From: Candidatus Micrarchaeota archaeon UBA95 | GTDB taxonomy: Archaea; Micrarchaeota; Micrarchaeia; Norongarragalinales; Norongarragalinaceae | NCBI GenBank assembly: GCA_002499405.1 | Contig: DALH01000018.1 | Coordinates: 1-39,013 of the forward strand | Direction: 5' to 3' | Length of the DNA stretch: 39,013 nt | Part shown: piece by piece, positions 6,243 to 35,154 of the stretch | Layout of the letters: every line of letters starts with the position of its first letter | Position numbering within the stretch: position 1 is the first letter of the stretch | Notes under the pieces: generated by a model | Told to the model about the DNA's origin: nothing | Databases searched by the model: none | The model's input: only the letters and a program-made list of their open reading frames with translations | Translations under genes and position numbers: made by a program

Positions 6243-8813
<2,571 letters not shown>

Positions 8814-9530
8814 TTAAATGATTTGCGAGTCGCCCGGAAGCACGCGCTCAAGCTCTGTTACGGACACGCCCGGCCATTCCACGTGCAGTTTCTTGGATGC
8901 AACCGCCTTTGAAGAGGGCCCGGGCTCCGCGAGTTTGCCCGCGCCCGGAAAGCGCTCGGGCACTGCGCTCACCTCGCTGCCTTGCTTGAGGAGCTTGAGT
9001 TTTAGGGGCACGTTGCGGAACCACTTGCGCTCCCCGTAAATCATGAACGCCCCCTTTCCCACGAATTCGCCGGGGGAATACTTGCTCACCTGCTCTTTGG
9101 GAACGCAGTACGCGTCTGCCACGAGCAGCCCCCCCTTCCAGGCGCGGCTGTAAATGCAAGCCCACTGCGCGGCTTCCCCTAGGTCTTGTTCGGCTGCACT
9201 CCTCCCGTTCTTCAGGATTGTTGCGGGCGCGCCGTGCACGTCCGCGTGAAAGAACAAGTCCTCGCCCGTCAAGTGTTTTGCCACTAGCAACTCGTTTTGT
9301 TTCGCGTCCCTGCCCGCGACGCAGAGCAGGCCGTTGCTCGTGTGAAACCAGTGGAATTCCTCAAACCACTTTGCCTTTTTGGGTTGTTTCCTGCTCTTGG
9401 CTTTCTTCTTCAGCCCCTTGTTGAGAGAGGCGCGCGCTCCCGCCGCCTTCCTCTCGAATTTCTTGGCTTTCTCAAAGTAATCCGATGCGTTCTGGTGCGC
9501 CGTTTTTTGCGGGTCCAACAACAAGTCCAT
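8814..9530 (-). CDS. Stand-alone NFACT-R (DUF814) domain protein, related to the C-terminal half of RqcH/NEMF
   Basis: 238 aa. KWFEEFHWFHTSNGLLCVAGRDAKQNELLVAKHL...DLFFHADVHGAP...AAQWACIYSRAW matches the NFACT-R core. No NFACT-N domain; the start lies 1 nt after the topA stop. Confidence 0.75.
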   Translation of the reverse strand: MDLLLDPQKTAHQNASDYFEKAKKFERKAAGARASLNKGLKKKAKSRKQPKKAKWFEEFHWFHTSNGLLCVAGRDAKQNELLVAKHLTGEDLFFHADVHGAPATILKNGRSAAEQDLGEAAQWACIYSRAWKGGLLVADAYCVPKEQVSKYSPGEFVGKGAFMIYGERKWFRNVPLKLKLLKQGSEVSAVPERFPGAGKLAEPGPSSKAVASKKLHVEWPGVSVTELERVLPGDSQII

Positions 9531-9531
9531 G

Positions 9532-11627: not shown

Positions 11628-12284
11628 ATGAAGCGGGTTCCAACCGGCGTGCTCGGCTTGGACGAACTGATGGGGGGCGGCCTGCCCGAAAACAGCGTCA
11701 CCCTATTGGTCGGCGCAACCGGAACCGGCAAAACCGTTTTCGCAACCCAGTTCGCTTTCGAGGGCGCGCTTCGCGGCGAAAAAACAATTTTCGCGGGTTT
11801 CAACGAGTCCGCCCAAGAATTAAGGGAATCCGCGAACTCTTTCGGCTTCAACCCGACGCCCCTGGAAAAAAAAGGAAAACTGTTGTTGTTCGATTGCTCG
11901 GCGGCGCGCGCCGGCGCCTACCCCGAAGGCAAGGGCTTGAAGCCGCACGAGGAAGCCGAAAGCGCGATAATGCGGGAGTGCACTGCATTCAAGGCCCGCC
12001 AGCTCGTGATTGATTCCTTCACGCCGCTGGCGGGGGAACGACTACGCGAACAATTCCACAGCCTTTCAAGAAGAATGAAGTTAGCCGACTTAACCGTCCT
12101 CGTGGTCGCCGAACCGGATTGCGCCCCGGTTCACGAGGCGGACAACGTCATTTTTTTGGGGTGCGAAGACAAGCCCTGCCTGCGGATTTTGAAGTTGCGG
12201 GGTTCCTTGCACAGCACTCGAAGGCACCCTTACGCGATAACCTCTTCCGGGTTCGCAGTTCAACGCGCCGACTTCCAGTTCTAG
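11628..12284 (+). CDS. KaiC-like / RecA-superfamily single-domain ATPase
   Basis: 218 aa. GVLGLDELMGGGLPENSVTLLVGATGTGKT (Walker A) and C-terminal LKLRGSLHSTRRHPYAITSSG typical of archaeal KaiC-domain proteins. Confidence 0.85.
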   Translation: MKRVPTGVLGLDELMGGGLPENSVTLLVGATGTGKTVFATQFAFEGALRGEKTIFAGFNESAQELRESANSFGFNPTPLEKKGKLLLFDCSAARAGAYPEGKGLKPHEEAESAIMRECTAFKARQLVIDSFTPLAGERLREQFHSLSRRMKLADLTVLVVAEPDCAPVHEADNVIFLGCEDKPCLRILKLRGSLHSTRRHPYAITSSGFAVQRADFQF

Positions 12285-15247: not shown

Positions 15248-15434
15248 CGGGCCCAGAGGGACGGTCGCAACCTTTCTTTTTTCATCAATGCCTAGCAAAC
15301 GCTTCCGCGTTTGCAGGCACGCGAACCACAACGGTTCGCCGTGTTTTTTCTTTCACGAAAGAAAAAAGATTGTTTCGAACCCTCGACACCTCGGTTAAGA
15401 GCCGAGTGCTCTGACCAGGCTGAGCTATGGGCCC
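15248..15434 (-). tRNA. tRNA-Lys (CUU) interrupted by a 112-nt intron in the T-loop (between positions 59 and 60)
   Basis: 5' exon (15434..15374): GGGCCCA TA GCTC AGCCTGGTCA GAGC A CTCGG CTCTTAA CCGAG GTGTC GAGGG TTCGAA. 3' exon (15261..15248): T CCCTC TGGGCCC G. The 3' exon completes the T stem (GAGGG/CCCTC) and a perfect 7-bp acceptor stem. No T-stem complement lies directly after the T-loop. Confidence 0.85.
15262..15373 (-). other. tRNA-Lys intron (non-canonical position), highly structured
   Basis: Three hairpins on the minus strand: TTTTTTCTTTC-GT-GAAAGAAAAAA, GCGAACC-GTTGT-GGTTCGC, and GCAAACGC-GGAA-GCGTTTGC. The boundary is ambiguous by 1 nt (59/60 versus 60/61). Confidence 0.75.
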
Positions 15435-15471: not shown

Positions 15472-15987
15472 ATGGTTGTAGCCGTTGCGCGGTTGGGCCA
15501 CCGCTCCAAGCGCGACAAGAGGTTGAGTACGCATTGCGCATTGATTGCGCGCGCCTTTGGAGCCGAGCGAATGGTTTACTTCGGTGAAAAGGACGCCGTA
15601 TTGGAGGCCAGCGTTCGGGGCGTTGTTTCGCGTTGGGGCGGCTCGTTTGAAATCGAGCACGGCAACTCGTGGAAACGCCTCTTCAACGAAGAAAAAAAAC
15701 GGGGAACAAAAATAGTTCACCTGACCATGTACGGCTTGCCCTACAAGCGCGTGTTGCAATCGGTCAAGGGGAAGCGCCTGCTCGTGGTCATCGGTTCCAA
15801 AAAGGTTCCACGCGGGATTTACGGGGAAGCGAACTACAACTGTTCAATCACCAACCAACCGCACTCCGAAGCCGGGGCGCTCGCCGTGTTTCTGGAAGGC
15901 CTGGGTTTGCAGTCGCGCTTCAGGGGGGCGAAATTGAGGTTGAAACCCTCTGCAAGAGGCAAACGTTTCACGACTAAATATAAATAG
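15472..15987 (+). CDS. trm56: tRNA (cytidine56-2'-O)-methyltransferase aTrm56 (SPOUT)
   Basis: 171 aa. VARLGHRSKRDKRLSTHCALIARAFGA...VSRWGGSFEIE...IVHLTMYG is typical of the archaeal Trm56 family. Confidence 0.85.
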   Translation: MVVAVARLGHRSKRDKRLSTHCALIARAFGAERMVYFGEKDAVLEASVRGVVSRWGGSFEIEHGNSWKRLFNEEKKRGTKIVHLTMYGLPYKRVLQSVKGKRLLVVIGSKKVPRGIYGEANYNCSITNQPHSEAGALAVFLEGLGLQSRFRGAKLRLKPSARGKRFTTKYK

Positions 15988-16003
15988 TTATCTGACCAGA
16001 ATA

Positions 16004-16540
16004 ATGTTCATGCCGGAAGGTAAGTCGTTGAGGGGGCTCTATTCTTTTGTCAGCGAGCGCACTGGCGGCGATGGTTTGAAGGTCTTGAAGGCCCTCGGCG
16101 ACGGCGCGACCGATGACGTCATAGAGCAAAAAACCAGTTTCAAGGTTTCCAACATCCGGCACTTGTTGAACGTGTTGCACGAAAACGGCATCGTGAACTA
16201 CACGCGCGAGAAAAACATGCAGACGGGCTGGTTCACGTACACGTGGTATTTCGACGTGGATCGGACAACTCAAAACCTGTTGCGCGCGAAGCGAAGGCAA
16301 CTCGCGGGCCTGAAGGTCCGCCTCACCAAAGAGGAGACAAAGGATTTTTATCAGTGCAACAAGAAATGCCGGCCGCACGGTTTCGAGGAGGCGTTCGACA
16401 ACAGCTTCAAATGTTTGGAGTGCGGCTGCAGGTTGAAGCCGGAAAAGGACTCACACAAGGAAAAACGCTTAAACGAATTAAACGAGCAAATCAACTCTTT
16501 GCAACAACTGCTCGGCAACTTTGAGTCGAACGAGTTATAA
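16004..16540 (+). CDS. tfe: Transcription factor E (TFE alpha, TFIIE-alpha homologue)
   Basis: 178 aa. N-terminal winged helix (DDVIEQKTSFKVSNIRHLLNVLHENGIV), zinc ribbon CNKKC...CLECGC, C-terminal coiled coil. Confidence 0.85.
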   Translation: MFMPEGKSLRGLYSFVSERTGGDGLKVLKALGDGATDDVIEQKTSFKVSNIRHLLNVLHENGIVNYTREKNMQTGWFTYTWYFDVDRTTQNLLRAKRRQLAGLKVRLTKEETKDFYQCNKKCRPHGFEEAFDNSFKCLECGCRLKPEKDSHKEKRLNELNEQINSLQQLLGNFESNEL

Positions 16541-16569
16541 ACGCGAAAACGCAAATTCTTCCTGTTTTT

Positions 16570-16644
16570 AGCGGGGTAGGGTAGCCAGGAGTGCCCGCTG
16601 GGCTCATAACCCGGAGATCGGAGGTTCAAATCCTCTCCCCGCTA
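16570..16644 (+). tRNA. Initiator tRNA-Met (CAU)
   Basis: AGCGGGG TA GGGT AGCCAGGAGT GCCC G CTGGG CTCATAA CCCGG AGATC GGAGG TTCAAAT CCTCT CCCCGCT A. A1:U72 pair and three G:C pairs at the base of the anticodon stem are archaeal initiator features. Confidence 0.92.
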
Positions 16645-23610: not shown

Positions 23611-23895
23611 ATGAAAATTACAAGAAAACTCGGAGTTGCTATTCCCGTTGCAGCGGCGCTGGCCCTCGGGGGTTTTCACGCCCCACCCAAATACGAGGCG
23701 CCCGCGGAACGACCGCCAATAGTAGAGTTTCAACGGGTTAGACCCGAAAACCGCTTGATTCTTTTGCGAACCCTGCGCGAAGCAGAAGCAAGGCGCTTGC
23801 CTATCAGAGAAGAGCCGCACACGCCCCACAAAAAATTTAAAATAGAGTTTGAACTTCCTAAAGCAGTTCTTAAGGGTCCAAAGGTTAAACGCTAA
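23611..23895 (+). CDS. Small secreted/basic hypothetical protein
   Basis: Internal ATG of ORF 23599..23895. MKITRKLGVAIPVAAALALGGFHA is signal-like. Weak support. Confidence 0.4.
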   Translation: MKITRKLGVAIPVAAALALGGFHAPPKYEAPAERPPIVEFQRVRPENRLILLRTLREAEARRLPIREEPHTPHKKFKIEFELPKAVLKGPKVKR

Positions 23896-24383
23896 TCAAC
23901 GCCCTTCCTGCGCTTGACGCGCCACGTCTCAACCAGCGAACTCCACTCGCTGCCAGCGTGTTGCATTGCCTCGCCAAAACGCTTGCTCAACTTCAACACC
24001 ATGCGGTGCCTCTTGTCTCTTCCCTCTTGCCCCGAGGGATTGACGCGCTCGCGCGCCAGCAAACCAAGACGAATCATCTTGGGAATCACGAGGTTCCGCA
24101 GCGTTGAGTTGGGCACGCCGTTCTCCTGCGCCCAGACCGCAAGTTCGTCCCCGTTAACACTCTCCTTGTCTGACAGGAATGAAACCAGTTTCAACGCAAT
24201 TGAATACTGCGCTTCCTGCAAATCCGGAGGAAAAACAAGTTTCAAAACGTCCTCTTTCTCCCAGCGCGCGCTCCAAGGCATTGGCGGGTTGTTGTAATCC
24301 AAGAGCAGGGCTCTGCGGCTCGAAATACCGCGTGACGCAGGCCCTTCGCCCTTTTCCTTAACCATCACGAGTTCAAACGCCAA
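23892..24383 (-). CDS. Hypothetical winged-helix DNA-binding protein bordering the AT-rich island
   Basis: 163 aa. HTH-like GVPNSTLRNLVIPKMIRLGLLARER followed by a wing-like basic segment. Confidence 0.55.
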   Translation of the reverse strand: MAFELVMVKEKGEGPASRGISSRRALLLDYNNPPMPWSARWEKEDVLKLVFPPDLQEAQYSIALKLVSFLSDKESVNGDELAVWAQENGVPNSTLRNLVIPKMIRLGLLARERVNPSGQEGRDKRHRMVLKLSKRFGEAMQHAGSEWSSLVETWRVKRRKGVD

Positions 24384-24410
24384 GCCGATATAATAGCGTT
24401 ATGAGGGAAC

Positions 24411-24430
24411 GCTTCCATTGTTTCCACTGA
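24411..24430 (-). repeat. ORB-like element (tandem TGGAA[A/G]C)
   Basis: Minus strand reads TCAGTGGAAACAATGGAAGC. It resembles the archaeal origin recognition box core TCCAGTGGAAAC with one base missing. Confidence 0.35.
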
Positions 24431-24431
24431 A

Positions 24432-24451
24432 TTTTTGGCGGTATAGCGCCG
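24432..24451 (+). repeat. 20-bp direct repeat, copy 1 (TTTTTGGCGGTATAGCGCCG)
   Basis: 19/20 identical to 25870..25889. Contains a small hairpin GGCG-GTATAG-CGCC preceded by T5. Confidence 0.7.
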
Positions 24452-24626
24452 AACTGGCGAGCTTTGTTCGGAAAAAGAGTTTTCGTGTTAAAACAATCCG
24501 TCAACAACAACCTTTTGTGGCTGCCCAGCTTCAAACAAGGAATTTATGAGGTTATTTGCTGGTTTGAGTTGCTTTGCCTATAATGCGGCTTTTTGGTTTG
24601 GTTGGTTTTTCGCTTAAACTAAAAAG

Positions 24627-24642
24627 AGTGGGCAGGTTTTTG
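24627..24642 (-). repeat. Inverted copy of the AAAACCTGCCCACTY iteron
   Basis: The plus strand gagtgggcaggttttt is the reverse complement of AAAAACCTGCCCACTC. Confidence 0.5.
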
Positions 24643-24780
24643 CGTCAAGCAAAAAATTTGCAAAATTTTTTTCAGTTGAGCTCCGTTATTCCATTAAACA
24701 CCGTATTGGTGTTTTGAATATGCGTTTTTTGACTGGTTTGGCGTTGCATTTTTCATGCGTTTACCGCGTTTTTTCAAAAG

Positions 24781-24830
24781 TACAAACATACTAAATTATA
24801 TTGTTATGTTGTTTTTATTTTGAGGGTTTT
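24781..24830. other. Most AT-rich stretch of the island (candidate DNA unwinding element)
   Basis: tacaaacatactaaattatattgttatgttgtttttattttgagggtttt. It lies between oppositely oriented ORB-like elements at 24411..24430 (minus) and 24831..24841 (plus). Confidence 0.3.
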
Positions 24831-24841
24831 TTAGTGGAAGC
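24831..24841 (+). repeat. ORB-like element (TTAGTGGAAGC)
   Basis: Shares AGTGGAAGC with the tandem element at 24411..24430 but in the opposite orientation. Confidence 0.3.
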
Positions 24842-25031
24842 ACGTCAAAATGATGTAACTGATGCCTGTTCTAACCGCGTTTTGCATTATTTTAGGCAAT
24901 TTGGGGTGTTCGCCCCTGCCCGAGCCGCCCCTTTTTATTATTCAATACTATTTTAACATAACGTTTCCTTGTCTGTGCTCGTGGTCGGGTTCGTTGCGTT
25001 GCCATTATCTTGGTGGTTCGTTTTCTATGTT

Positions 25032-25364
25032 TTATTGTTTTGTTATTGGTTTGAATGTTAGTTTGTGGGCTATTTCTGCAGCGTGTGCAAATACCTCTTC
25101 GTCTGTATAGTGATTGTCCAGAACATGCAATAGCAGGTTGTTTGCAACTTCTTTTCTTTGATTATAATCCGTTTTTTTTCCTAAATTCAGCTCTCCTGCC
25201 TTGATTTTGAGGGCAACATATTTGATTAGGGCTCGTTCTTGATCTCTTGAAAGCGCTTTTTCCGGCTCTACAACCCATTTTTTAACTATTCTGGCACTTG
25301 AAAACAAGTCCTTTTGGCTTATTTCTTGTCCTTCTTCTGCTTCAGGTACGAGTCGGTACGGCAT
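25032..25364 (-). CDS. Orphan hypothetical protein inside the AT-rich island
   Basis: 110 aa, Lys/Glu-rich (MPYRLVPEAEEGQEISQKDLF...). AT-rich codon usage unlike the neighbours. GGTGA SD-like sequence 4 nt upstream of the ATG, and a TATA-like CATTAAATT further upstream. Confidence 0.55.
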   Translation of the reverse strand: MPYRLVPEAEEGQEISQKDLFSSARIVKKWVVEPEKALSRDQERALIKYVALKIKAGELNLGKKTDYNQRKEVANNLLLHVLDNHYTDEEVFAHAAEIAHKLTFKPITKQ

Positions 25365-25422
25365 TATTTCACCACTAAAACCAGGAAAAACACGAATTTA
25401 ATGTTTTTCCTGCCTAGTTTTT

Positions 25423-25446
25423 ACTGGAACAACGGGTTTCCACTAG
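25423..25446. repeat. Imperfect dyad ACTGGAAC-AACGG-GTTTCCACTAG (ORB-like)
   Basis: The minus strand reads CTAGTGGAAACCCGTTGTTCCAGT. CTAGTGGAAAC differs by one base from the ORB core CCAGTGGAAAC. A related copy TTTTAGTGGTGAAA lies at 25367..25380 (minus). Confidence 0.35.
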
Positions 25447-25476
25447 ATTTTTTTTGAAGAAACTCTTGAAAACGCT

Positions 25477-25745
25477 AAAACCTGCCCATTCCTGAATCTT
25501 TTTCACCTTGTTTCACGCTTTTTTTGTGCGGACCGACTTCAAATTCACGCAAACGAGCCGAAAACACGGTTTTTTCGTGGAACCTGCCCGGGTCGGCCCC
25601 AAAATTTTTGAATTCCCAAAATTCTGGTAGTGTAAAAACGAAAATCATTCAAAAAATGCCGTTTTTTGAAAAACCTGCCCACTTCTTCATTTTTGAGTTG
25701 TTTTTGTGCAATATTTTGTTTGCATTTGATTTTCCTGCCCACTCC
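25477..25745 (+). repeat. Four direct copies of a CCTGCCC[A/G] iteron in AT-rich context
   Basis: aaaaCCTGCCCAttcc (25481), ggaaCCTGCCCGggtc (25583), aaaaaCCTGCCCActtc (25674), tttCCTGCCCActcc (25734). Spacings are 102, 91 and 60 nt. A degenerate copy ttttCCTGCCtag lies near 25409. Confidence 0.55.
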
Positions 25746-25869
25746 TCAAACGAAAAGTTTAAAAAGAACGCCCGAAAGTGTCGAAGTTAAAACGCGGAAT
25801 TTTAAGGTTTTAACCGTGTTTTAATTGAGTTTTTTGTTTTGGTTTTGCCCGCCCTTTTCAAGGCACGCG

Positions 25870-25889
25870 TTTTTGGCGGTATAACGCCG
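25870..25889 (+). repeat. 20-bp direct repeat, copy 2 (TTTTTGGCGGTATAACGCCG)
   Basis: 19/20 identical to 24432..24451 and 1438 bp downstream of it. Hairpin GGCGG-TATAACG-CCGCC. Confidence 0.7.
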
Positions 25890-25899
25890 CCCGCCCGTT

Positions 25900-26160
25900 T
25901 CATTTTTGGTCGCGGAAAACGATTGCGTGTTGCGGCGGTCGAAGTTGATGGATTCGTTGGCGAGCGTGCAACTTAGGCCTGGGGGAGAGGCGGGGGGTTG
26001 AGTTGTTGAGGTGCATGAGCTGGTTGAAAGCAGGAGCTGGCTGTACCTCGCGGCGGGCCTCGCGCGCCCGCGTTTGAAGTCGCTGCGTTTTCAGGTGATA
26101 GAGTTCAGCGCCGCGGTGGGAAGTTGCAGCGCGGTGAGGGGAAATACCCATCTTCTTCAA
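25900..26160 (-). CDS. Hypothetical small basic protein, last ORF of the Ub-E2 transcription unit (weak)
   Basis: 86-aa ORF, Arg/His/Gln-rich, on the same strand and 20 nt downstream of the 33-aa ORF. The composition could also be non-coding GC-rich DNA. Confidence 0.3.
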   Translation of the reverse strand: MKKMGISPHRAATSHRGAELYHLKTQRLQTRAREARREVQPAPAFNQLMHLNNSTPRLSPRPKLHARQRIHQLRPPQHAIVFRDQK

Positions 26161-26179
26161 GATGCGCAGAGGTCTGCGG

Positions 26180-26281
26180 CTAGCATTCGTGTTTTTCCAC
26201 GAACTCGAATTCCTTTTCAGAGGGAGGTGTGCGCTCTTCTTTCACGGGTTCTTTTATGCTGACGATTCGCGGGCGCTTCAT
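26180..26281 (-). CDS. Small ORF (33 aa) translationally coupled to the E2 gene (weak)
   Basis: MKRPRIVSIKEPVKEERTPPSEKEFEFVEKHEC. Its ATG overlaps the E2 stop as ATGA (GGGTTATGAAG). Confidence 0.3.
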   Translation of the reverse strand: MKRPRIVSIKEPVKEERTPPSEKEFEFVEKHEC

Positions 26282-26736
26282 AACCCACTCACGATGCGCG
26301 GCTTTCCGGGTTCGGGTTTGTTGCCTTGGTTTTCGTAGTATGCGGCGGCCTCCTTGTTCAACGGGTCCGAGGGGTTCGGGTTTTTTAGCAGGTATTGCAG
26401 GGCGTTGACGACGTTGGTTATTGTTTGGTTTTCCGCCCAGTCGTTCACGAGTTGGATGCATACCTTGCCGTCTTCTTCGCGTATGTTGGGGTGGAATATC
26501 GGGGTGAGCCACGTGATTTCAACGCCGCCGGGGTAGGGATAGTTGCGGTTCAACTCTATTTTGACGGCGTGCTTGTTTTTTTCGAGTACGTGGTCGCCTT
26601 CGCGGTAGAGGCCCGGGCCGTTCAAGCTCAGCACGTATTCCGTGTAATCCGAGTTTACCTCGAATTTGGTTCCAGAGTTCCGCATTTGCTGGTATTCGTT
26701 TTCGAGGCGGCGCTTCCAGATCTGCGGGGGGAGCAT
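26278..26736 (-). CDS. Ubiquitin-conjugating enzyme E2 (UBC fold)
   Basis: 152 aa. YPYPGGVEITWLTPIFHPNIREEDGKVCIQLVNDW: HPN motif followed by the catalytic Cys and conserved Trp, then the PNPSDPLN loop. The ATG directly abuts the stop of the Ub-like gene. Confidence 0.9.
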   Translation of the reverse strand: MLPPQIWKRRLENEYQQMRNSGTKFEVNSDYTEYVLSLNGPGLYREGDHVLEKNKHAVKIELNRNYPYPGGVEITWLTPIFHPNIREEDGKVCIQLVNDWAENQTITNVVNALQYLLKNPNPSDPLNKEAAAYYENQGNKPEPGKPRIVSGL

Positions 26737-26979
26737 TCAGCCACCCGTAGGGTCGGGAATCAACAACAGTTCTTGGTTCTCCTTGATTTCGGCTTCTTCC
26801 AGAGTCATGTCGGGGTTTAGTATTTTGTTTTCCTTGGTTGCCAGAACGAAGCGGTCCTTCAAGTGAAGGTTTTCGGCGAGTACTTCCAGCACCGAGGAAA
26901 CCGAGTAGTCCCCTTCAACCGCCAGTATGATTTCCTTTCCAGACGTGGTTTGGGTTACCTTGATGTTGAATTCGCTCAT
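26737..26979 (-). CDS. Ubiquitin-like beta-grasp protein ending in Gly-Gly
   Basis: 80 aa. MSEFNIKVTQTTSGKEIILAVEG...ELLLIPDPTGG then stop. Size, alternating beta-strand pattern and the C-terminal GG are typical of Ub/Ubl modifiers. Confidence 0.85.
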   Translation of the reverse strand: MSEFNIKVTQTTSGKEIILAVEGDYSVSSVLEVLAENLHLKDRFVLATKENKILNPDMTLEEAEIKENQELLLIPDPTGG

Positions 26980-27015
26980 ACGTTTTTTAAGGTCAAGAGA
27001 TTAATATTCCTTGTT
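26980..27015. promoter_or_regulatory. 36-nt divergent promoter region of the Ub-E2 and JAMM-RING units
   Basis: TTTTTTAA (26983..26990) is 26-33 nt upstream of ATG 27016. AATATTAAT (27008..27000, minus strand) is 21-29 nt upstream of ATG 26979. These are crossed leaderless-type TATA boxes. Confidence 0.4.
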
Positions 27016-27702
27016 ATGGCCGACGACGAAATGCAGGAAATTCGGGGCAAGAAAGAGCCGCGGCCGCCGGTCGGAACCAACGTTGAAGAAGACGGGGAAA
27101 GGGTTTCACAGGAGGAGTCGGTCGAGGAAATGAAACCAGTTCAGGCGCCAGTACAGGAATTCCCGCCCAAAAAAAGTCGGGAAGCGCGGTCGGAGCAGGA
27201 GTTGGAGGCAAGCGACTTCTCGGATTTGCCGGGCAAAGACGTTTCAGGCGCAAAGCCGACCCGGGACGAACAGTTGCCTTCGCCGCCCAAGCCGCCGGCG
27301 CAGGAAGCGCTGCAGGAAAAATCATCCGAAGAAAAAATCGCGGAAATTGAGGAATCGCCCGCCGAGGAAACCGGAGAACCCTCCGAGGAAGATGAGTCCC
27401 TGCAGGAAGTGAAGCCGCCGGATGAATTAAAGGAGTTGCGGGAATCCGAACAGGAAGCGCAGGAGTTGTTGGAGGATGACTCCAAGCCGCGTTATATGCG
27501 GTTTCACGAGCGGGCGCGGCAAAGCACTTTTCCGGGGAGCGCCGAGCAGGCGAAAAAAGACATCACGCCGGTTTCAAGCGAGCCGCAAATAACCACGGAA
27601 CAACGCGTTAACCAGGCAATAGAGTTGCACAAGGCGCAACAAAAGGAAGGATTATTCTCCAAGTTGTTGAGTCCCATAAAACGCAAGCTCGGGTTCACGT
27701 GA
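27016..27702 (+). CDS. Acidic Glu/Pro/Ser/Lys-rich, probably intrinsically disordered protein (hypothetical)
   Basis: First ATG after the divergent promoter, within ORF 26863..27702; 228 aa. Low-complexity acidic sequence (EESVEEMKP..., EEKIAEIEESPAEETGEPSEEDESLQE) with a short basic amphipathic C-terminus (LFSKLLSPIKRKLGFT). The stop overlaps the JAMM start (TGATG). Confidence 0.7.
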   Translation: MADDEMQEIRGKKEPRPPVGTNVEEDGERVSQEESVEEMKPVQAPVQEFPPKKSREARSEQELEASDFSDLPGKDVSGAKPTRDEQLPSPPKPPAQEALQEKSSEEKIAEIEESPAEETGEPSEEDESLQEVKPPDELKELRESEQEAQELLEDDSKPRYMRFHERARQSTFPGSAEQAKKDITPVSSEPQITTEQRVNQAIELHKAQQKEGLFSKLLSPIKRKLGFT

Positions 27703-28139
27703 TGTACTCCGCCTACTTTTTTCAAGCCGCCTTGGAGGAGGCGCGCAGGCATTTCCTTGCAGCCGCCGAAAAAGGCGTGGAAGCAATCGGGTTGTTTGCG
27801 GGCCGGGTTTATAGTTTTCAAGGCAGGGATTACCTGGTTGCCGAGGAGTACGTGACCGAGGAAAATGATTCCTCGGCTTTGCACACGCGTTTCGCGCGCG
27901 AAGCGTTCAAGGGGCTGGCCAAGAAGTATTCGGGAAAACCGTTCGTTGTATGGGCGCACTCGCACCCGAATTACGGGTGCTTCATGTCTTCGCAGGACTT
28001 GGCGGCGCACAACTCGTTCTTCAACGAGCCGTACCACCTCGCGCTGGTGGTGGACCCGGTGCGCGGAGAGGAAAAACTGTTTAAGGTTGAAGGAGAAGAA
28101 TTTTATCCGGTGCCGTACGCGGTGGTGAAAAAGAAGTGA
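27702..28139 (+). CDS. JAB1/MPN/JAMM metalloprotease (Rpn11-like deubiquitinase candidate)
   Basis: 145 aa (ATG 27702; a GTG at 27699 is also possible). Upstream Glu (VAEEYV) and an exact JAMM motif HSHPNYGCFMSSQD (HxHx7Sx2D). Confidence 0.88.
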   Translation: MYSAYFFQAALEEARRHFLAAAEKGVEAIGLFAGRVYSFQGRDYLVAEEYVTEENDSSALHTRFAREAFKGLAKKYSGKPFVVWAHSHPNYGCFMSSQDLAAHNSFFNEPYHLALVVDPVRGEEKLFKVEGEEFYPVPYAVVKKK

Positions 28140-28825
28140 GTGCCGGGAAGCGTTTTACTTTGACGAAGTTCGACAAGGATTTGCTGGGTTACCTGTCGGA
28201 CGGTCCATCGTCGCGCCGCGAGTTGTTGGCGAAGACGCGAGTCGCTGAATCCGAGTTCGACAAGCGCATCAAGAAGTTGAAAGCGAAGAAGTACGTCGTC
28301 CTGGACGGAGATGGGATTGCCTTGGGCGTTGGGGGCTACAACAAGTCGAGGCAACTGGACGCGGCGGCCAGGCGCAAGGAGACCAAAAAAGAACGGGTAA
28401 TGGTTTCCTTGCCGGAAGCAAAACCCGCGCCAAAACAGGAGCCGAAAACAGAGCCGGTTAAACCCGAACGCGTCGAGGCGCCGGCGAACGCAATCGACTT
28501 GGCGGAAATCCTGAAGCAGGCAAGCGAACGCATGCGCGAACAAAAAGGCGTTCAACAAAAATCAATTGAAAAGGAGCCATGGCCGCCGAAGCGCGTGCAA
28601 CCAAAGGAGTCGTGCGAGTTGTGCAAAGGCGAATTCTTCTTGTCCGTTAAGGGGGGTCACCCGAAGTACGGGCACTGTTTTTGCGGGGCTGCTTACCACA
28701 AGGACTGTTACGAGGCCGTGATGGGGGGCGACAAGCACTGCGTGAGGTGCGGCAGGAAACTGGAACTCTACCTTGACAAGGAGAGCGAGGAAGCCGTGCA
28801 TTCTATTCGGGACGTCTTCGACTGA
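28136..28825 (+). CDS. Winged-helix plus C-terminal C4HC3 RING-type zinc-finger protein (E3 candidate)
   Basis: 229 aa; the GTG start overlaps the JAMM stop (GTGA). N-terminal wHTH-like DLLGYLSDGPSSRRELLAKTRVAESEFDKRIKKLKAKKYVVL, a Lys/Pro/Glu-rich linker, and a C-terminal C-x2-C-x17-C-x-C-x4-H-x2-C-x10-C-x2-C pattern. Confidence 0.8.
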   Translation: MSAGKRFTLTKFDKDLLGYLSDGPSSRRELLAKTRVAESEFDKRIKKLKAKKYVVLDGDGIALGVGGYNKSRQLDAAARRKETKKERVMVSLPEAKPAPKQEPKTEPVKPERVEAPANAIDLAEILKQASERMREQKGVQQKSIEKEPWPPKRVQPKESCELCKGEFFLSVKGGHPKYGHCFCGAAYHKDCYEAVMGGDKHCVRCGRKLELYLDKESEEAVHSIRDVFD

Positions 28826-29441
28826 AAGTCATTTCCTCGATTCGCTTAAATCGTTTTTCATTGGTTTTCTTGCTTTTTGCCAGCCATTCGATTAGCTGAA
28901 TCGCTTTTTTCTTGTGTGCGTCCGCTCCTACCTGGTTTACCCGCCCCCAACTCGTTTCCGTTACGCTGGTCACTCCCTTTCTTATTTTTCCCCTATACCT
29001 ACTGCTGCCAATAAGTGGTTTTAGTTTTCTGTTTAGCTCTGTTCCGGTTGGTTTAAGTTGGTCTATGACGCCGCTTACGCCCAAGTTTGTAGCGGTTGCT
29101 ACTGAGATTCCCGCGGGGACGCTCCAAAAACCGAGTTTTCGCCATAGCGTTGCCGCGATTGCTCCGCTTCCGCCAATCAGCGCCCCACCCTCGATTTTTG
29201 CCCTGCGGCTCGTATGACCCCGTTTTGCAACTTCAATTGAATCGTTGATTTCTTTGATTAGCTCCCCGATTTCGTAGTGTTGGGCCGGAGTGCGGTTGGC
29301 GGGATGCGTTTGCAGGGCGATTTCGTGTTTTTTTAATGTCTCCAATATGTCTTTTTCCGCGTTCAGGATTTTTTGCGTGTGTTCAAACGCGTATCGGTTT
29401 GCGGTTATTCTTCTTTTTTTGTTTCCCTCTCCAATCGGCAT
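28803..29441 (-). CDS. Hypothetical glycine-zipper membrane-associated protein co-transcribed with E1
   Basis: 212 aa. Helical N-terminus, central GGALIGGSGAIAATLW...GISVATATNLGVSGVI hydrophobic Gly-rich hairpin, basic C-terminus. AGGGG SD-like sequence 8 nt upstream and 11 nt after the E1 stop. Visibly AT-richer than the flanks. Confidence 0.65.
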   Translation of the reverse strand: MPIGEGNKKRRITANRYAFEHTQKILNAEKDILETLKKHEIALQTHPANRTPAQHYEIGELIKEINDSIEVAKRGHTSRRAKIEGGALIGGSGAIAATLWRKLGFWSVPAGISVATATNLGVSGVIDQLKPTGTELNRKLKPLIGSSRYRGKIRKGVTSVTETSWGRVNQVGADAHKKKAIQLIEWLAKSKKTNEKRFKRIEEMTFSRRRPE

Positions 29442-29452
29442 TTATTTTCCCC

Positions 29453-30199
29453 TTAATGCACGGGGCAGTTCGCCCTTTTTGGAACGTCGTAAACGATTGT
29501 TTCCTGTTTCAAGCCGTCAAAGAAAACGTATTTTCCTTCAAGGCAGTCGCGGCCGTGAACCATTTTCACGAACTCGTTGGCCTGCATCGCGGCAATGATT
29601 GACGTCGTGGTGGCGAGCGCCGGCATCTTTGGGTCCAAGAAGTCAAGGACTTCGCCCACGCACGAATATTTTTTCCACATCTTCTTGTAATCCGCCTTGC
29701 TCATGGTGCATTCCAGGCACGAGGAAGGCGAGCGCACGACCTGCACCTTGCCGTGGAAGCCCGTAGTCCCTCCGTCAATGAGCGGAACGCGGCCGTAGCA
29801 GTAAGCGTTCAAGTGGAGGCGCGCGGCCTGGTTATCCAAGCCCGAGAAAGCGTAATCAAACCGGTCGTAAAACCAGTCGTCAAGGAATTCCAGGCGCTTG
29901 ACCACGGCCTTGATGCGTGCGTTCTCGTCCATGACGCGCGCTTTTTCCGCGAGCACTTCCGCCTTGAGTTTTCCAACGTCCGAGGAGTTGAAGAACACGC
30001 AGCGGTTGAGGTTCGCCTCGATTATGGAATCGTAGTCCACGAGCGTCAAGTCGCGAACCCCTTTTTGGACGAGCAACTTGATTAATTCGTTTCCGAGCGC
30101 GCCCGCTCCAACCACGAGACACCGCGCTTTGGATACCGCGTCCTGGTCCCATCCGTTGATGCGTTTCTGCCTGTCGAAGCGGTCGTCGTCCGCGCGCAT
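29453..30199 (-). CDS. Ubiquitin-activating E1-like enzyme (minimal ThiF/MoeB-type adenylation domain)
   Basis: 248 aa from ATG 30199 (the track's TTG at 30205 is less likely). RFDRQKRINGW...CLVVGAGALGNE (GxGxxG), VDYDSIIEANLNRCVFF, GLDNQAARLHLN, PLIDGGTTGFHGKVQVV, CLEC motif. Confidence 0.88.
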   Translation of the reverse strand: MRADDDRFDRQKRINGWDQDAVSKARCLVVGAGALGNELIKLLVQKGVRDLTLVDYDSIIEANLNRCVFFNSSDVGKLKAEVLAEKARVMDENARIKAVVKRLEFLDDWFYDRFDYAFSGLDNQAARLHLNAYCYGRVPLIDGGTTGFHGKVQVVRSPSSCLECTMSKADYKKMWKKYSCVGEVLDFLDPKMPALATTTSIIAAMQANEFVKMVHGRDCLEGKYVFFDGLKQETIVYDVPKRANCPVH

Positions 30200-30205
30200 A
30201 ATCAA

Positions 30206-30233: not shown

Positions 30234-31007
30234 ATGGCCGTAATCGCTTACTCGGTTCGAGACCCAGCCGGAAGAAAAATGGCGGAGGCGTTCAAGTCAA
30301 GCGGCTTCAAGGAGCGGGACTCGTTTCACGGCATGCCTTGTTGGGAGCGGGGCGAAGTGCTCCTGATTGAGTCCGAACAGGAAACAATAGGTTTTTCCAC
30401 GCGATTTGAAACCGATTTGTTGTTGTTTGCTTCAAAGCATTCCAGCGCTGCCGCCAAACCGTGCCTCACCGCACACTTTACGGGCAACTGGGGCCCCGCT
30501 CAACACGGCGGAAGGGAACGCGAACTGTGTTCGGCGCACCCTTCCGCGTTGAAGGCGGCTTTTGAATTTTTGCGCGCGAACCCGTTGGAAGGGTTTCCCG
30601 CGATTATGGAAGCAACCCACCACGGCCCAACCGCGTTGCCTTGCCGGGTCTTGTTCGTTGAAGTAGGCAGTTCCGAAAAAGAGTGGGAACACGAGGCGGC
30701 GTGTGAAACCGTGGCGCGCGCCTGCTGGGAGGCGTGCAGTGCGCCGAAGGCGGAAGAGTGCGTTCTTGGAATCGGGGGAGGGCATTATTGTTCCAAGTTC
30801 TCGGAGTTGGAAAAAGAAAACGCGTTTTCGCACGTTTGCCCGAAGTACGCGCTCGGGTTTCTGGACGCGGAAATGCTGGAACAGGCAATTCAAAAGGCGG
30901 GTGCGCCGGTCAAAAAAGCGTTCGTGGACAAGAAGGGTTGCGGCGCGCACAAGGCAAGGGTAATTAATTTGCTTGAGGAGGCAGGCCTTGATTACGAGAA
31001 GGTTTAG
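30234..31007 (+). CDS. dtdA: D-aminoacyl-tRNA deacylase, archaeal type (DtdA)
   Basis: Internal ATG of ORF 30078..31007; 257 aa. MAVIAYSVRDPAG..., HFTGNWG, MEATHHGPT and FVEVGSSEKEW blocks. Confidence 0.82.
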   Translation: MAVIAYSVRDPAGRKMAEAFKSSGFKERDSFHGMPCWERGEVLLIESEQETIGFSTRFETDLLLFASKHSSAAAKPCLTAHFTGNWGPAQHGGRERELCSAHPSALKAAFEFLRANPLEGFPAIMEATHHGPTALPCRVLFVEVGSSEKEWEHEAACETVARACWEACSAPKAEECVLGIGGGHYCSKFSELEKENAFSHVCPKYALGFLDAEMLEQAIQKAGAPVKKAFVDKKGCGAHKARVINLLEEAGLDYEKV

Positions 31008-32212
31008 AACTCGAACAACTTTTTCTGCCGTAGAATATTGCTCTTGGATGCGTAAGCGCGCCACGGGTTTTTGAGTCGGGTTGCGGCATCCGCCAAGGCC
31101 TTGGAAAGGGAATAGAATTCGTTGGGTTTGTTCCTGAAGGCGGCGCGCACGTTTTCGCGCACCTGCCACACGCCGACGGGCACGCGGTAGCCGTCGTAAA
31201 TCTCGCGGACCACGATGACGCGCGCCTGGACGTTTCGTTGTGCCAGCGCCTCGGCAACCGCGAAGCGCGCCGCGTAATACCCGCCACCCTCGCTTTGCGC
31301 GTAATCCTTTCGGCCTTGGAACGGCTCGTATTCGTAGGCGATGCTTGACTGGTTTTCGCTCCAAAAACTGCCCTTGGACCACGCCTCGAATTGTTCGTAC
31401 TCCCAGTTGCCCGGCAGTAAAATGATTTCAAACCTGTTGAACAAGTACTCGTTGGAATAAACCTGGTAGCAGTCGATTGTCTGGCTTTCACGGATTTTGT
31501 TGAGGTGTTCATTGGCGAGCATGGTGTCGGTAGCCGTGATTCCCCAACGCGTTGGCACGAGGCGCCGGTCTTCATGTTTTCCGAGCGCGCCCGCGGTCAA
31601 CAGTTTTTGGAGGTAATAATACTCGAATCCCTTTTCCAGCAGGGCGGTCAAGGCGTCCCTGGCCGTCCACCCCTCTTCAATTGCCTCGTCCACCGCTCCC
31701 GGAATGCAAGCGTTTCCCTGCACCTCTATGTTGCGCGCTTGCGCCGAGGGCCCGCTGGGCTGGCTCACGTCAAAAAATCTTACCTCGTTGCGGGGCACGT
31801 GTTCAAATGTTATAGCCACGTCCAGGGGCTTGGTGCTCATGGCCGCCTCCAGCAGGTCGCGGGAGAGCCGTTTTTTCACGCTTTGTTTTTGGTAGCCGCG
31901 CGCCATGACTGCGGCGCTTGAAACGATTTCGTCCAATGGCTTGCCATACCATTGAGAGGCGTCGGTTGAAGCACCCTCCAGACTCACGCTCGGACCAACA
32001 TTAACGCGGGGATAACCATTCCAGCCGACGAAGACGTTGGGAACGCTTTCGCCGACTACCTCCCTGCGCAGGCGTCCCGCCAGCGCCTGCCTGGCGTTGA
32101 ATCGTTCCAGAAGCGGGCATTTTTTTACTCCGCACATCAGCCGCCCCTTGCAAACCGTGCACGAGACCACGAATTGTTTTAAGCAAAGAAAAATAAATTC
32201 TTTTCCATTCAT
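31004..32212 (-). CDS. Archaeal Nre-family (DUF650/DUF651) putative DNA repair protein
   Basis: 402 aa. N-terminal CTVCKGRLMCGVKKCPLL cysteine motif and overall length/layout resemble Nre_N plus Nre_C proteins. Confidence 0.6.
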   Translation of the reverse strand: MNGKEFIFLCLKQFVVSCTVCKGRLMCGVKKCPLLERFNARQALAGRLRREVVGESVPNVFVGWNGYPRVNVGPSVSLEGASTDASQWYGKPLDEIVSSAAVMARGYQKQSVKKRLSRDLLEAAMSTKPLDVAITFEHVPRNEVRFFDVSQPSGPSAQARNIEVQGNACIPGAVDEAIEEGWTARDALTALLEKGFEYYYLQKLLTAGALGKHEDRRLVPTRWGITATDTMLANEHLNKIRESQTIDCYQVYSNEYLFNRFEIILLPGNWEYEQFEAWSKGSFWSENQSSIAYEYEPFQGRKDYAQSEGGGYYAARFAVAEALAQRNVQARVIVVREIYDGYRVPVGVWQVRENVRAAFRNKPNEFYSLSKALADAATRLKNPWRAYASKSNILRQKKLFEF

Positions 32213-32358
32213 ATGTCTCTTATATGTACTTTATTTCTCCCTCATAAGTCTTTTATAAAGTTCGAGCGGTCTTTTATCTGTCTTGTAATATGCACTTCCA
32301 GTATTGCATAACTCTTTTATATCTTTTCTTCTTTTGTTTTTGAGTGGGTTGAAATATC

Positions 32359-33489
32359 ATGCAGGTCTTTGAGGCGAGGCAACGGCTCTTATCCGAACTG
32401 GGTTGGAAGGAGAACCCCTTTGTGAAGGATTTACGCTTAGGGGACAGGACGTCTTTTTTGAAGTATTACTTGCCGATGGAGGGGGAAAAGATTCTGGAGC
32501 GGCTTGCCTTTGACGCGAAGGCGTGCCTCCTCGTCGGTCCGAAGGGCGTTGGAAAGACGTCGGCGCTTTATTTCGTTGAATATTCGTTGCCCGACGACTT
32601 CGAGTCGTTCATGTTCAAGGAGCCGCCGAAAACCCTGGAAGAACTGCACGAGCATTTGTTCGGCGTGGAGCGCGGCTTTTTGGACGCGTTGCTGGGGCGC
32701 CCGCCGAAAAAGATTTCGCGGGAGAAACTCGTCGGGAAGTTGAAGGCAAAAAAGAAGAAAGTGGTCCTCTTCATTGACGAAGCGCATTTGGAGGACAACC
32801 GCAACATGTACATGGAGTTCAAGTACTTGTTGGACGACGTGCCCAACCTGCGCCTCGTGGTTTCCGCATTGGGCCGCGAAAAGTTTCCGGACTCGCTGAT
32901 TCAACTAATCGGCGAGCCCAACATATTTCAGCGTAAAAAGTTTTCGGCGGAGGAGATGCGGCGCATAATATTGCATCGCATTCGGGCGGTCGGAGGGATG
33001 GGCTTCAAGCCGTTCCCGGACGCGTTCCTGGACGAGGTTTTGACCGAGCAAAATCTTTTGTCGCCGCGCTACGTTTTCGACGAATTGAATTCTTTTCTTG
33101 CGTCCCTGGCAATGGGAAAAAGCGAATGGAGGGCGGCTTCGGAGTATTCGGATAATCCGATAGTGCAAAGCGTCATCAAACGCGACCGCATAACCAAGGG
33201 CAACGTTTCGTGGTGGAACCAGTTGAGCCCCTCCCAAAAACAGATTTTGGAGTTGTTGCTGGAGTCCGAGGCATTGACTTTGAGCGAGATTCGGAAGGGC
33301 ACGGGCCTGTCCCAGAACACGGCGTTCAACGCGTTGTATCAGTTGAGGGGGAGCGACAAGGCCGAGAAGAAGCGCAAGCCCTCGGTTCCTTTTCCCCTTG
33401 TTTCGGTCAATGGGAGAAAGGTTGGAGGGCGCAAGCGCAACGAGTACTCCGTGAATGAGAAGATTCGCAATCTTTTCACCATGCATTGA
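32359..33489 (+). CDS. AAA+ ATPase with C-terminal winged helix, distant Orc1/Cdc6-like
   Basis: 376 aa. Walker A LLVGPKGVGKTS, Walker B VVLFIDEAHL, sensor-like RLVVSA, C-terminal wHTH LSPSQKQILELLLESEALTLSEIRKGTGLSQNTAFNALYQL. Confidence 0.7.
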   Translation: MQVFEARQRLLSELGWKENPFVKDLRLGDRTSFLKYYLPMEGEKILERLAFDAKACLLVGPKGVGKTSALYFVEYSLPDDFESFMFKEPPKTLEELHEHLFGVERGFLDALLGRPPKKISREKLVGKLKAKKKKVVLFIDEAHLEDNRNMYMEFKYLLDDVPNLRLVVSALGREKFPDSLIQLIGEPNIFQRKKFSAEEMRRIILHRIRAVGGMGFKPFPDAFLDEVLTEQNLLSPRYVFDELNSFLASLAMGKSEWRAASEYSDNPIVQSVIKRDRITKGNVSWWNQLSPSQKQILELLLESEALTLSEIRKGTGLSQNTAFNALYQLRGSDKAEKKRKPSVPFPLVSVNGRKVGGRKRNEYSVNEKIRNLFTMH

Positions 33490-33903: not shown

Positions 33904-35154
33904 TTATTTTCTTGCGTTCGGAACGCGTAACTGCAGTTGTATTTCAATTACTTCCCTTGTTTTTTTGAGGAAGGATTGCGCCCCTCCTCTGGGGAAGCTG
34001 GCGCCGGCGGCTATGTTGTGGCCGCCCCCGCTTCCCCCGGCAGCTTTTCCGGCCTTGCGCATAACTTCGCCGAGGTTCAAACCATTTTCCACGAGTTCGA
34101 GGGTGCCGCGCGCCGAAACCTTCACTTCGTTGGTTCCCGCGAATGCAATCAACGGCTTTTTTTTCACGAGTTTTTCGGCTATGATGCCGGCCTGCGCGGG
34201 CTCCACTTTTCCGCGTCCGTCATAGAAGTCGAAGCAGCCCAAATCAACGCTTTCGGCTTCCCGGAGCACGGCGGCGAGTTTTCTGGTTTGTTCCGCCAGT
34301 ATTTTTCTGGCGTCAACAAGGGATTCGCCGCCCCTGATTGCGGCTTGAATACCTTTTCTTGCTTCTCCGGCCCGGCCGCACGCGTCAAGCAGGGTACCGA
34401 GTTCGTGGGCGTCCCTGGTTTCCTCGCGGTCGGGTTGGTTCGGGAAAACGTAGGCGTTTCCGAAAAAGTTTTTTCCGATTTTCTTTTTCAGGTATGCATC
34501 TAGGCGCATCCTTTCTTTTGCGGGTATTTCGTAGTAGTGCGCTTTTGGGTTGAACCCGTTTTTTTCGAGTTCGCCGGGTTCAATCATTCCCTTCAACATT
34601 TTTGCGACGTTTTCGGTTATCCTGCCGTGAAGGGTAAGCCCCGGCGTGATGATTACTTCGCCGCGTTTGATGCACTCCTCAAGCATGACCTTGTTGAATC
34701 CGGTGAACGGCTCCTGCTTGTCCCCTATTGCCCCGGTTATGCCGAGTCGCCCCAGGTCCTTGCCCGTGTGCTTGAAACAGTGGTACGCCGTGGAGGCGCC
34801 GCAGGCGTCGAAGGTGCCGTCGAAACCGTAGTCGTGGACGTTTGCCTGTTTTCCGCCCTTTTTTTGCGGTGGGTGATGGTCCAGGAAGAAGGCGTTGTCC
34901 ACTTTTTCCTCAAGGTATTCGCGTTGGCCGGACCCGATGTCAACGAAAGCAACGCAGTCGTGTTTCACGGCGTTTATTTTTTTCACGATTTGTTCGTCCA
35001 CTTTTATCGCGGAAATCGTTTTTCGGGTTTCAACGGCGTTGCAGGTGAGGGCGGCGGCGCTCAAGCCGTCGCAGTCGTAGTGGTGAACCACGAGCACGTC
35101 TTCGAACCCGAGTATTTCGTCGCCTACTTCCCTGCACTTTTCCGGAAAACCCAC
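33904..35154 (-). CDS. DHH/DHHA1 phosphoesterase, archaeal RecJ/Cdc45 (GAN)-like
   Basis: 416 aa. Motif I VVHHYDCDGLSAA, motif III FFLDHHPP, DHHA1 GGGHNIAAGA. Confidence 0.85.
   Translation of the reverse strand: MGFPEKCREVGDEILGFEDVLVVHHYDCDGLSAAALTCNAVETRKTISAIKVDEQIVKKINAVKHDCVAFVDIGSGQREYLEEKVDNAFFLDHHPPQKKGGKQANVHDYGFDGTFDACGASTAYHCFKHTGKDLGRLGITGAIGDKQEPFTGFNKVMLEECIKRGEVIITPGLTLHGRITENVAKMLKGMIEPGELEKNGFNPKAHYYEIPAKERMRLDAYLKKKIGKNFFGNAYVFPNQPDREETRDAHELGTLLDACGRAGEARKGIQAAIRGGESLVDARKILAEQTRKLAAVLREAESVDLGCFDFYDGRGKVEPAQAGIIAEKLVKKKPLIAFAGTNEVKVSARGTLELVENGLNLGEVMRKAGKAAGGSGGGHNIAAGASFPRGGAQSFLKKTREVIEIQLQLRVPNARK

Follow-up and report, generated by a model that had tools for sequence, protein, structure and literature searches.

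The window analyzed here is a 39,013-nt contig of Candidatus Micrarchaeota archaeon UBA95, and it contains a 1.5-kb AT-rich island (positions 24384–25899) just upstream of a gene for a winged helix-turn-helix (wHTH) protein. The question raised by this locus is what such a mostly non-coding stretch does. A preliminary description of the window had offered three readings: a chromosomal replication origin, a degraded integrated plasmid or virus, and a cluster of small non-coding RNA genes. Our comparisons favor the first of these and speak against the other two. We consider it probable, although well short of assured, that the island serves as the origin of chromosome replication, alone or alongside others, and that it operates with iterons other than origin recognition boxes (ORBs). 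An origin is the best explanation because the island combines a convergent-repeat architecture around an AT-rich center with deep syntenic conservation, an origin-type switch in strand composition, and a nearby gene for an Orc1/Cdc6-like protein in a neighborhood rich in replication and repair genes. We infer that the origin fires and that a protein binds its iterons.

Contigs of GCA_001871605.1 and of three sister assemblies encode an identical wHTH protein. The assemblies derive from groundwater metagenomes, the host is a Micrarchaeota (DPANN) archaeon, and the homologues of the neighboring genes are likewise named as Candidatus Micrarchaeota. We retrieved 38 homologues of the wHTH protein, all of them from Micrarchaeota where named. 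The comparison set consisted of the genomic surroundings of eight proteins homologous to the wHTH, Orc1-like, or 110-aa protein together with 31 species-representative loci; the labels L006–L051 denote the loci of Micrarchaeota relatives that were compared with the window.

A repeat module in the AT-rich island

The GC content of the island is 0.394, compared with 0.552 in the remaining window, and no other 1.5-kb stretch is as low (the next lowest outside the island is 0.469). Runs of five or more T residues are five times denser in the island than elsewhere (17.2 versus 3.2 per kb), and its plus strand contains 572 T versus 346 A. The only sizeable open reading frame (ORF), at 25032–25364 on the minus strand, encodes 110 aa. 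The AT-richness, the abundance of T runs, and the single orphan ORF in a region of little coding had all been pointed out in the preliminary description and were upheld, as was its statement that integrase, transposase, and Rep genes are lacking: no such domain occurred in the approximately 38 ORFs of the window scanned for domains. When the 80-mers of the window were ranked by duplex stability, 24771–24850 was the second least stable overall. The surrounding DNA (24650–24850), the least stable and AT-richest of the island, is a candidate unwinding region. Both GC content and duplex stability thus give the island the AT-rich, easily melted, non-coding character of an oriC.

Several repeat families had also been reported from the island, and the palindrome, the iteron, and the ORB-like words found there all occur far above chance. 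The near-palindrome GCG[C/T]TATACCGCC is present in exactly two copies in 39 kb and is the core of a 20-nt direct repeat whose copies are 1438 bp apart. The distal copy, P1 (25870–25889; core GCGTTATACCGCC, 25875–25887), and the proximal copy, P2 (24432–24451; core GCGCTATACCGCC, 24437–24449), lie one at each border of the island, P2 being approximately 66 nt before the annotated start of the wHTH gene. These are also the only two window sites that match GCGBTATACCGCC, for which 0.08 are expected. Five direct iterons of the form T[A/G]GGCAGG plus WWWW lie on the minus strand within 25406–25741 (25731–25741, 25671–25681, 25581–25591 [degenerate], 25478–25488, and 25406–25416), all pointing to the center, and a single inverted iteron on the plus strand (24629–24639) faces this array. 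All five window matches to TRGGCAGKWWW fall inside the island (0.34 expected). The array and the inverted copy face each other across approximately 770 bp, and between them lie the 110-aa gene, a conserved block at 24816–24990, and the least stable island DNA. In layout, therefore, opposed repeats (five direct iterons versus one inverted) flank the putative unwinding region as in an oriC, and an initiator is predicted to bind them. The ORB-like word TTYAGTGGAAAC, with at most one mismatch, has three matches in the window, and all three are in the island.

For the proposed origin, two of the checks suggested in the preliminary description, a comparison with related genomes and a profile of strand composition, turned out in its favor. 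In related genomes, the same syntenic position holds a module that is for the most part non-coding and in which the arrangement of repeats is conserved. This module is shared by the window and at least eight further Micrarchaeota species and is located upstream of the same winged-helix gene. The order is a palindrome, three to six direct iterons, an AT-rich center of 0.8–1.5 kb, one to three inverted iterons, and a second palindrome, usually followed at a distance of approximately 70–120 nt by the wHTH gene. The full layout was present in L012/L014, L010, L020, L023, L026, and L042, and a partial layout in L030 and L016, with wHTH identities of 52–86% among the module-bearing species (52–68% for the distant ones). 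The array of three to six direct iterons in the same orientation recurs in eight other species; an inverted iteron is found at the corresponding place in L012, L014, L010, L020, L023, L026, and L042; an equivalent of P1 stands at the same border in L012, L014, L020, L023, L026, L042, and L030; and the position of P2 is kept 65–123 nt upstream of the wHTH gene in six species. Across species, the border palindromes are 12–13 bp in length (GCGkTATACCGCC), and the pooled iteron consensus is rAAT[A/G]GGCAG[G/T]WWWW.

In the close relatives of the window (L012/L013, L014, and L048), the island aligns as patches of 70–95% identity amid diverged sequence, and these patches correspond to the palindromes, iterons, and ORB-like words; across species, the non-coding sequence between the motifs has diverged. 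The gene order of the surroundings is conserved as well and runs RecJ/GAN, histone, AAA+ protein, Nre, D-aminoacyl-tRNA deacylase, E1 ... JAMM, ubiquitin-like protein, E2, Lhr, module, and wHTH, and both genes flanking the module, Lhr and wHTH, are transcribed away from it. Vertical inheritance at a single position, with conserved short motifs and freely changing sequence between them, indicates a functional DNA element and not a decaying insert.

This conservation also bears on the proposal of a degraded integrated plasmid or virus, according to which the iterons and the AT-rich DNA would be relics of a replicon and the 20-nt repeats the scars of att sites. The island does resemble such an element in its AT-richness, its iterons, its orphan gene, and its pair of direct repeats spaced 1438 bp from each other, but its position is fixed across species of 52–86% wHTH identity: it occupies the same slot between Lhr and wHTH down to the most distant of them. 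In every such species, both supposed att copies are palindromes, and the two differ from each other within genomes. We had ourselves considered the 20-nt repeat as a pair of att sites; it turned out to be palindromic, and many species retain this palindrome at both borders. Furthermore, Rep, integrase, transposase, and structural-gene domains were absent from the ORFs scanned, and searches of plasmids, phages, PHROGs, and viral contigs gave no hit. An integrated element is, in our judgment, highly improbable.

The proposal of a cluster of small non-coding RNA genes could draw on TATA-like elements and on conserved non-coding blocks such as 24816–24990, which contains an inverted ORB-like word (24830–24841, plus strand) and a variant iteron (24915–24931) and is 77–83% identical in L012, L014, and L048. 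We find such a cluster scarcely credible, because the island gave no Rfam match at the gathering thresholds or, beyond chance-level matches, at E ≤10, and it contains no tRNA. Consensus folds of the 24816–24990 block, the best conserved in the island, were weak (−15 to −16 kcal/mol over 175 nt) and showed no excess folding and essentially no covariation on either strand across four related sequences. Unlike the short DNA motifs, this block is specific to the close clade and was not detected in more distant species.

Strand asymmetry around the module

Strand asymmetry was examined over 20–39 kb per genome. We regressed the third-codon-position GC (GC3) skew of each ORF, given for the top strand, against two predictors, the strand of the gene and its side relative to a breakpoint; gene strand was included because coding strands are skewed in themselves. 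The cumulative GC skew of the window has its minimum at approximately 24–24.5 kb, and the best breakpoint of all in the GC3-skew regression was the island (t = 6.8, permutation p ≤2e−4), the genes on its right having positive and those on its left negative GC3 skew on either gene strand. The profile thus contains a strand-composition switch exactly at the island. In an independent species, for which L042 and L049 were joined (37.7 kb), the best breakpoint was at the module edge (t = 7.6), with nearly all left ORFs negative and most right ORFs positive, again on either strand. The sign of the skew effect was the same in 10 of the 10 module-bearing loci (mean 0.104; t ≥2 in six), whereas the mean effect at the ten testable loci without the module was −0.02. 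The skew of A and T at third codon positions (AT3) shifts in the opposite way to GC3; therefore, G+T-rich strands diverge from the module, which is the classical polarity of an origin. This classical pattern has been reported for Forterrea, a DPANN archaeon recovered from a site of the same type, in which cdc6 adjoins the origin predicted from skew (PMC5905446; see also PMC7111523). Gene orientation around the island shows no bias that is consistent from species to species, and it supports neither side.

Several observations weigh against an origin at this locus. The skew effect is weak at L020 and L028 (both about 0) and at L012 (t = 1.3), and the merged 35-kb L010/L046 region reaches t of approximately 1.9, with the maximum still at the module. 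Genomes of the L017/L050 type have neither module nor switch within 20–28 kb of the wHTH or Orc1-like gene. The module is large (1.45 kb in the window and up to 2.7 kb elsewhere) and carries small genes. Most characterized archaeal origins adjoin orc1/cdc6, whereas the flanks of the module in the window are the wHTH gene and a remnant of Lhr, and the orc1/cdc6-like gene is not adjacent. Neither ORB nor mini-ORB boxes are found among the conserved repeats: the iteron is without the TTCC...GAA core, and ORB-like AGTGGAAAC words are confined to the close relatives of the window (L012, L014, and L048). In L021, a low-GC relative, the switch is sharp and of the opposite polarity (GC3 t = −3.8, AT3 t = +9.1).

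Some of these points can be set out further. In the L017 and L050/L051-type genomes, the wHTH gene lies directly behind the RLI gene, and in L050/L051 (ERZ24794679 NODE_1, 279966–307967), the block from Lhr to RecJ is inverted relative to wHTH; their origin may be at a different site, or the module may be less than universal. One end of the L050/L051 rearrangement is at the position occupied elsewhere by the module. As for the ORB-like words, a classical ORB origin had first been suggested by the TTCAGTGGAAAC words, which are kept only in L012, L014, and L048; the TTYAGTGGAAAC word was absent from the module-bearing L010, L020, L023, L026, and L042. Since these words are not conserved in distant module-bearing species, they were not taken as defining elements. 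One of them, AGTGGAAAC, is contained in a dyad, TGGAAAC-N5-GTTCCA (25425–25447, minus strand), that is invariant in L012, L014, and L048 and missing from the module-bearing species at greater distance.

The reversed polarity of L021 is seen at the locus equivalent to that of the window. This locus has an AT-rich island (8782–9968 of JBDRBT010000002.1) upstream of wHTH and ribbon-helix-helix (RHH)-like genes, and its repeats differ from those of the window and include a 22-bp palindrome, TAGTTCATAGTTTTATGAACTA, in four copies; L031, a relative of L021, likewise has a reversed sign on the wHTH side. Because skew switches mark termini as well as origins, the module might instead be another replication landmark, such as a terminus, a dimer-resolution site, or a fork-barrier region. 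The terminus-type polarity at L021 would fit this, as would the winged helix with a long helix in the wHTH protein, whose modeled fold resembles the bacterial replication terminator protein (RTP) weakly and generically (ranks 9, 30, and 45). Nevertheless, the polarity is of the origin type in the window and at 10 of 10 module-bearing loci, an Orc1/Cdc6-like gene lies 6–13 kb away, and no Xer/integrase or recombinase domain was found among the scanned ORFs (the dif consensus was not searched for). A terminus or related landmark is therefore very unlikely.

Candidate initiators and regulators

The most likely initiator of the proposed origin would be a divergent Orc1/Cdc6-like AAA+/winged-helix protein of 376 aa, encoded at 32359–33489 (plus strand), 6.5 kb from the module. 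Its AlphaFold2 (AF2) model (pLDDT 89) has Cdc6/Orc1 2qby_B as its best PDB fold match (E 2e−9), and further full-length matches include human and Drosophila Cdc6, Aeropyrum ORC1 2v1u_A (all in the top five), and human ORC subunits; STAND/NLR ATPases also score well in this search. The protein has Walker A and B motifs (GPKGVGKTS and DEAH) and a C-terminal winged helix, and its overall fold, as modeled, is similar to that of Orc1/Cdc6. The curated family models (Pfam Cdc6_C and NCBIfam Orc1/Cdc6) did not match it, the matches obtained being weak ones to AAA_22 and HTH models, and sequence and profile searches of the PDB returned no Orc1. We therefore describe it as Orc1/Cdc6-like by its modeled fold and not as a demonstrated family member. 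It is kept throughout Micrarchaeota at 45–83% identity, annotated merely as “ATP-binding protein,” and may be the divergent initiator of the phylum. Wherever the gene could be placed (the window and the L010/L011 and L042 genomes), it lies on the Lhr side of the module at a distance of 6–13 kb (12–13 kb in the relatives); at loci that reach only to Nre or E1, the synteny is consistent with the same placement. An origin in the AT-rich intergenic region between Nre and the Orc1-like gene (32212–32359) was considered and rejected: although its DNA is the least stable in the window, repeats are absent and the skew does not change there.

At the proposed origin, the initiator would bind the convergent iterons with a defined polarity and melt the least stable DNA around 24650–24850, MCM would be loaded at the melted DNA, and forks would depart in both directions. 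A dimeric DNA-binding protein probably uses the border palindromes as operators, the obvious candidate being the adjacent PadR/Lrs14-like winged-helix protein; in this way, the small genes beside and inside the module would have their expression coupled to the origin. These steps are modeled on the way in which characterized archaeal origins work (PMC1904270, PMC3607249). In a variant that we hold to be distinctly unlikely, the origin would be read by a system other than Orc1 and ORBs, with the iterons and palindromes recognized by the wHTH protein and, in most species, an RHH-like protein as origin-specific initiators or licensing factors, and the Orc1-like ATPase acting at most downstream; this would be akin to WhiP at Sulfolobus oriC3, although the proteins are unrelated.

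The wHTH gene (23892–24383, minus strand) is transcribed away from the island. The modeled protein (pLDDT 82) resembles PadR, Lrs14/AbfR, MarR, and TFE-type winged helices with a long C-terminal helix (fold search, E ≥0.007), and sequence and profile searches of the PDB with it were empty. We had also considered it as an Orc or Cdt1/WhiP-like initiator, an idea that was abandoned because the fold search returned regulators of the PadR, Lrs14, MarR, and TFE types. Its true start is probably the ATG at 24364–24366, not the mechanically assigned TTG at 24383, and several homologues, the closest included, start at the equivalent of MVKEKGEG encoded from this ATG. The putative promoter region (24388–24431, minus strand) comprises an ORB-like word (24420–24431), a 27-nt invariant block, TGGAAGCGTTCCCTCATAACGCTATTA, and a TATA-like box approximately 25–30 nt upstream of the ATG, a distance that suggests a leaderless mRNA.

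The orphan 110-aa ORF in the center of the module is a real gene, with a dN/dS of 0.24 relative to the L048 copy. Among 5.8 billion clustered proteins, its product has a single homologue, and it matched no Pfam, NCBIfam, or PHROG model. An inverted repeat around TTAAATT (25382–25412, minus strand) is probably its TATA/promoter region, and the palindrome is preserved in L012 and L014 despite changes on both arms. In L012 and L014, an unrelated ORF of approximately 95 aa occupies the position of the 110-aa gene; homology of the 110-aa protein to the L012 ORF or to the RHH-like family was rejected for want of any BLASTP alignment. Most other species encode in the center a small conserved protein of approximately 60–100 aa with the pattern MTKLIRV..TY..L..AG.LQ....VSLD.AI..LL (L010 8661–8906, L020 8991–9170, L026 6728–7009, L042 6777–7040, L030 9108–9323, and others). 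This pattern suggests an RHH-like protein; Pfam gave only a non-significant antitoxin match. The window, L012, and L014 lack the RHH-like gene and have unrelated orphan ORFs instead; the module center is thus a slot for small, fast-evolving, probably DNA-binding proteins.

These genes raise the possibility that the module is solely a transcriptional control region, in which the palindromes and iterons serve as operators of the wHTH repressor (and of the RHH-like protein elsewhere) that control the small central genes and wHTH without any role in replication. The proximal palindrome and the 27-nt invariant block do lie within the wHTH promoter, the wHTH fold is typical of regulators, a small RHH-like protein is encoded centrally in most module-bearing species, and the L021 island has the same genes with different repeats. 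However, control of transcription leaves unaccounted for the strand-adjusted sign change of GC3 and AT3 exactly here in several species; the iterons persist in the window, L012, and L014 despite the missing RHH-like gene; and five or six sites over 350 bp facing one site 0.8–1.5 kb away would be unusual for a simple operator. We consider a role in control alone rather unlikely. The two roles are not mutually exclusive, and control and origin functions may well coexist in the module.

Regarding its borders, the island had been described as lying between a wHTH gene and the ubiquitin-E2 unit. The model of the winged-helix protein confirms the former border, whereas the latter has to be corrected, since a GC-rich stretch of approximately 380 bp (25900–26277) containing an Lhr remnant separates the island from E2 (26278–26736), which is followed by the genes for a ubiquitin-like protein, a JAMM protein, and E1. 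This remnant of an Lhr-type helicase gene (25927–26136, plus strand) shares 51% identity in tblastn with Lhr residues 189–251, includes an in-frame stop, and spans approximately 70 codons around the DExH box of the DEAD/DEAH helicase; in blastn, the 25900–26277 region matches the inside of Lhr in L012 and L014. No excess RNA folding was detected in this gap (z-scores 0.03 and −0.9). In relatives, an intact Lhr (870–940 aa) lies between E2 and the module, which it flanks; therefore, the window lineage has deleted Lhr. The remnant, the palindrome-iteron architecture, and the Orc1/Cdc6-like gene 6.5 kb away had all escaped the preliminary description.

Other features of the neighborhood were also recorded. 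The replication and repair genes of the window encode an RFC large-subunit-like protein (1437–2966), topoisomerase IA (9532–11595), a KaiC/RadA-like ATPase (11628–12284), RecJ/GAN (33904–35154), and Nre (31004–32212). The ubiquitin-like cassette (26278–30205) encodes a ubiquitin-like protein of 80 aa, E2, JAMM, and E1 along with conserved unannotated genes, including one for a Cys-rich 229-aa protein; it forms a syntenic block also in L010, L012, L016, L028, L030, L039, L042, and L051, always between the Orc1-like/Nre genes and Lhr. At 15367–15428 (minus strand), a borderline Rfam tRNA match (29.5 bits versus a threshold of 29; model positions 7–64), for which ARAGORN made no call, may represent a fragment of a tRNA or an atypical one. 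In L006, a different AT-rich insert of approximately 1 kb (15558–16606; GC 0.39 in a genome of 0.59) lies between a dCTP deaminase gene and an HTH gene; it contains two paralogous small ORFs, each behind a near-identical leader of approximately 30 nt, and has no iterons or palindromes.

Comparison with known systems

To our knowledge, DPANN replication origins are almost unstudied, and we found no description of a Micrarchaeota origin in the literature searched. What is new here is an origin candidate that has convergent-repeat logic but non-ORB iterons, a palindrome frame, a detached gene for a divergent Orc1/Cdc6-like protein, and genes for putative small DNA-binding proteins inside it. If it is an origin, the border palindromes GCGKTATACCGC and the convergent GGCAG iterons (TRGGCAGKWWW) would provide a signature for locating the origin in Micrarchaeota genomes and orienting them, as well as a reference point for metagenomic growth-rate (peak-to-trough) estimates, and the iterons and the very divergent Orc1/Cdc6-like protein would form a pair that can be tested in vitro.

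Iteron plasmid origins consist of Rep-bound direct repeats next to an AT-rich region. The module resembles them, and RHH-controlled copy-number and partition loci, in its irregularly spaced 15-nt iterons beside AT-rich DNA and in the small RHH-like protein of most species; unlike them, it is chromosomal, vertically inherited, and syntenic, lacks Rep and ParA genes, and shows no similarity to plasmids or viruses. As at Sulfolobus oriC3, the proposed origin lies beside a winged-helix gene and not beside orc1/cdc6, and oriC3, which is specified by the winged-helix initiator WhiP, is a precedent for origin-specific recognition elements in archaea (PMC3607249). The wHTH protein differs from that initiator in that its modeled fold is PadR/Lrs14/MarR-like and not that of Cdt1/WhiP or of an Orc winged helix.

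The closest comparison is with the ORB/mini-ORB oriC of Pyrococcus, Sulfolobus (oriC1 and oriC2), and Aeropyrum (PMC1904270). The module differs from these in having GGCAG iterons in place of the TTCC...GAA core, with ORB-like words that are clade-specific; in an orc1-like gene that is 6–13 kb away and too divergent for the Pfam and NCBIfam models; and in being framed by two palindromes and carrying small genes. It shares with them an AT-rich intergenic location, opposed repeats flanking an unwinding region (a putative one here), a skew switch, and the proximity of Orc1/Cdc6-type and other replication and repair genes. If the module is indeed an origin, the recognition elements of archaeal origins can drift wholly from the ORB consensus without loss of the convergent-repeat logic.

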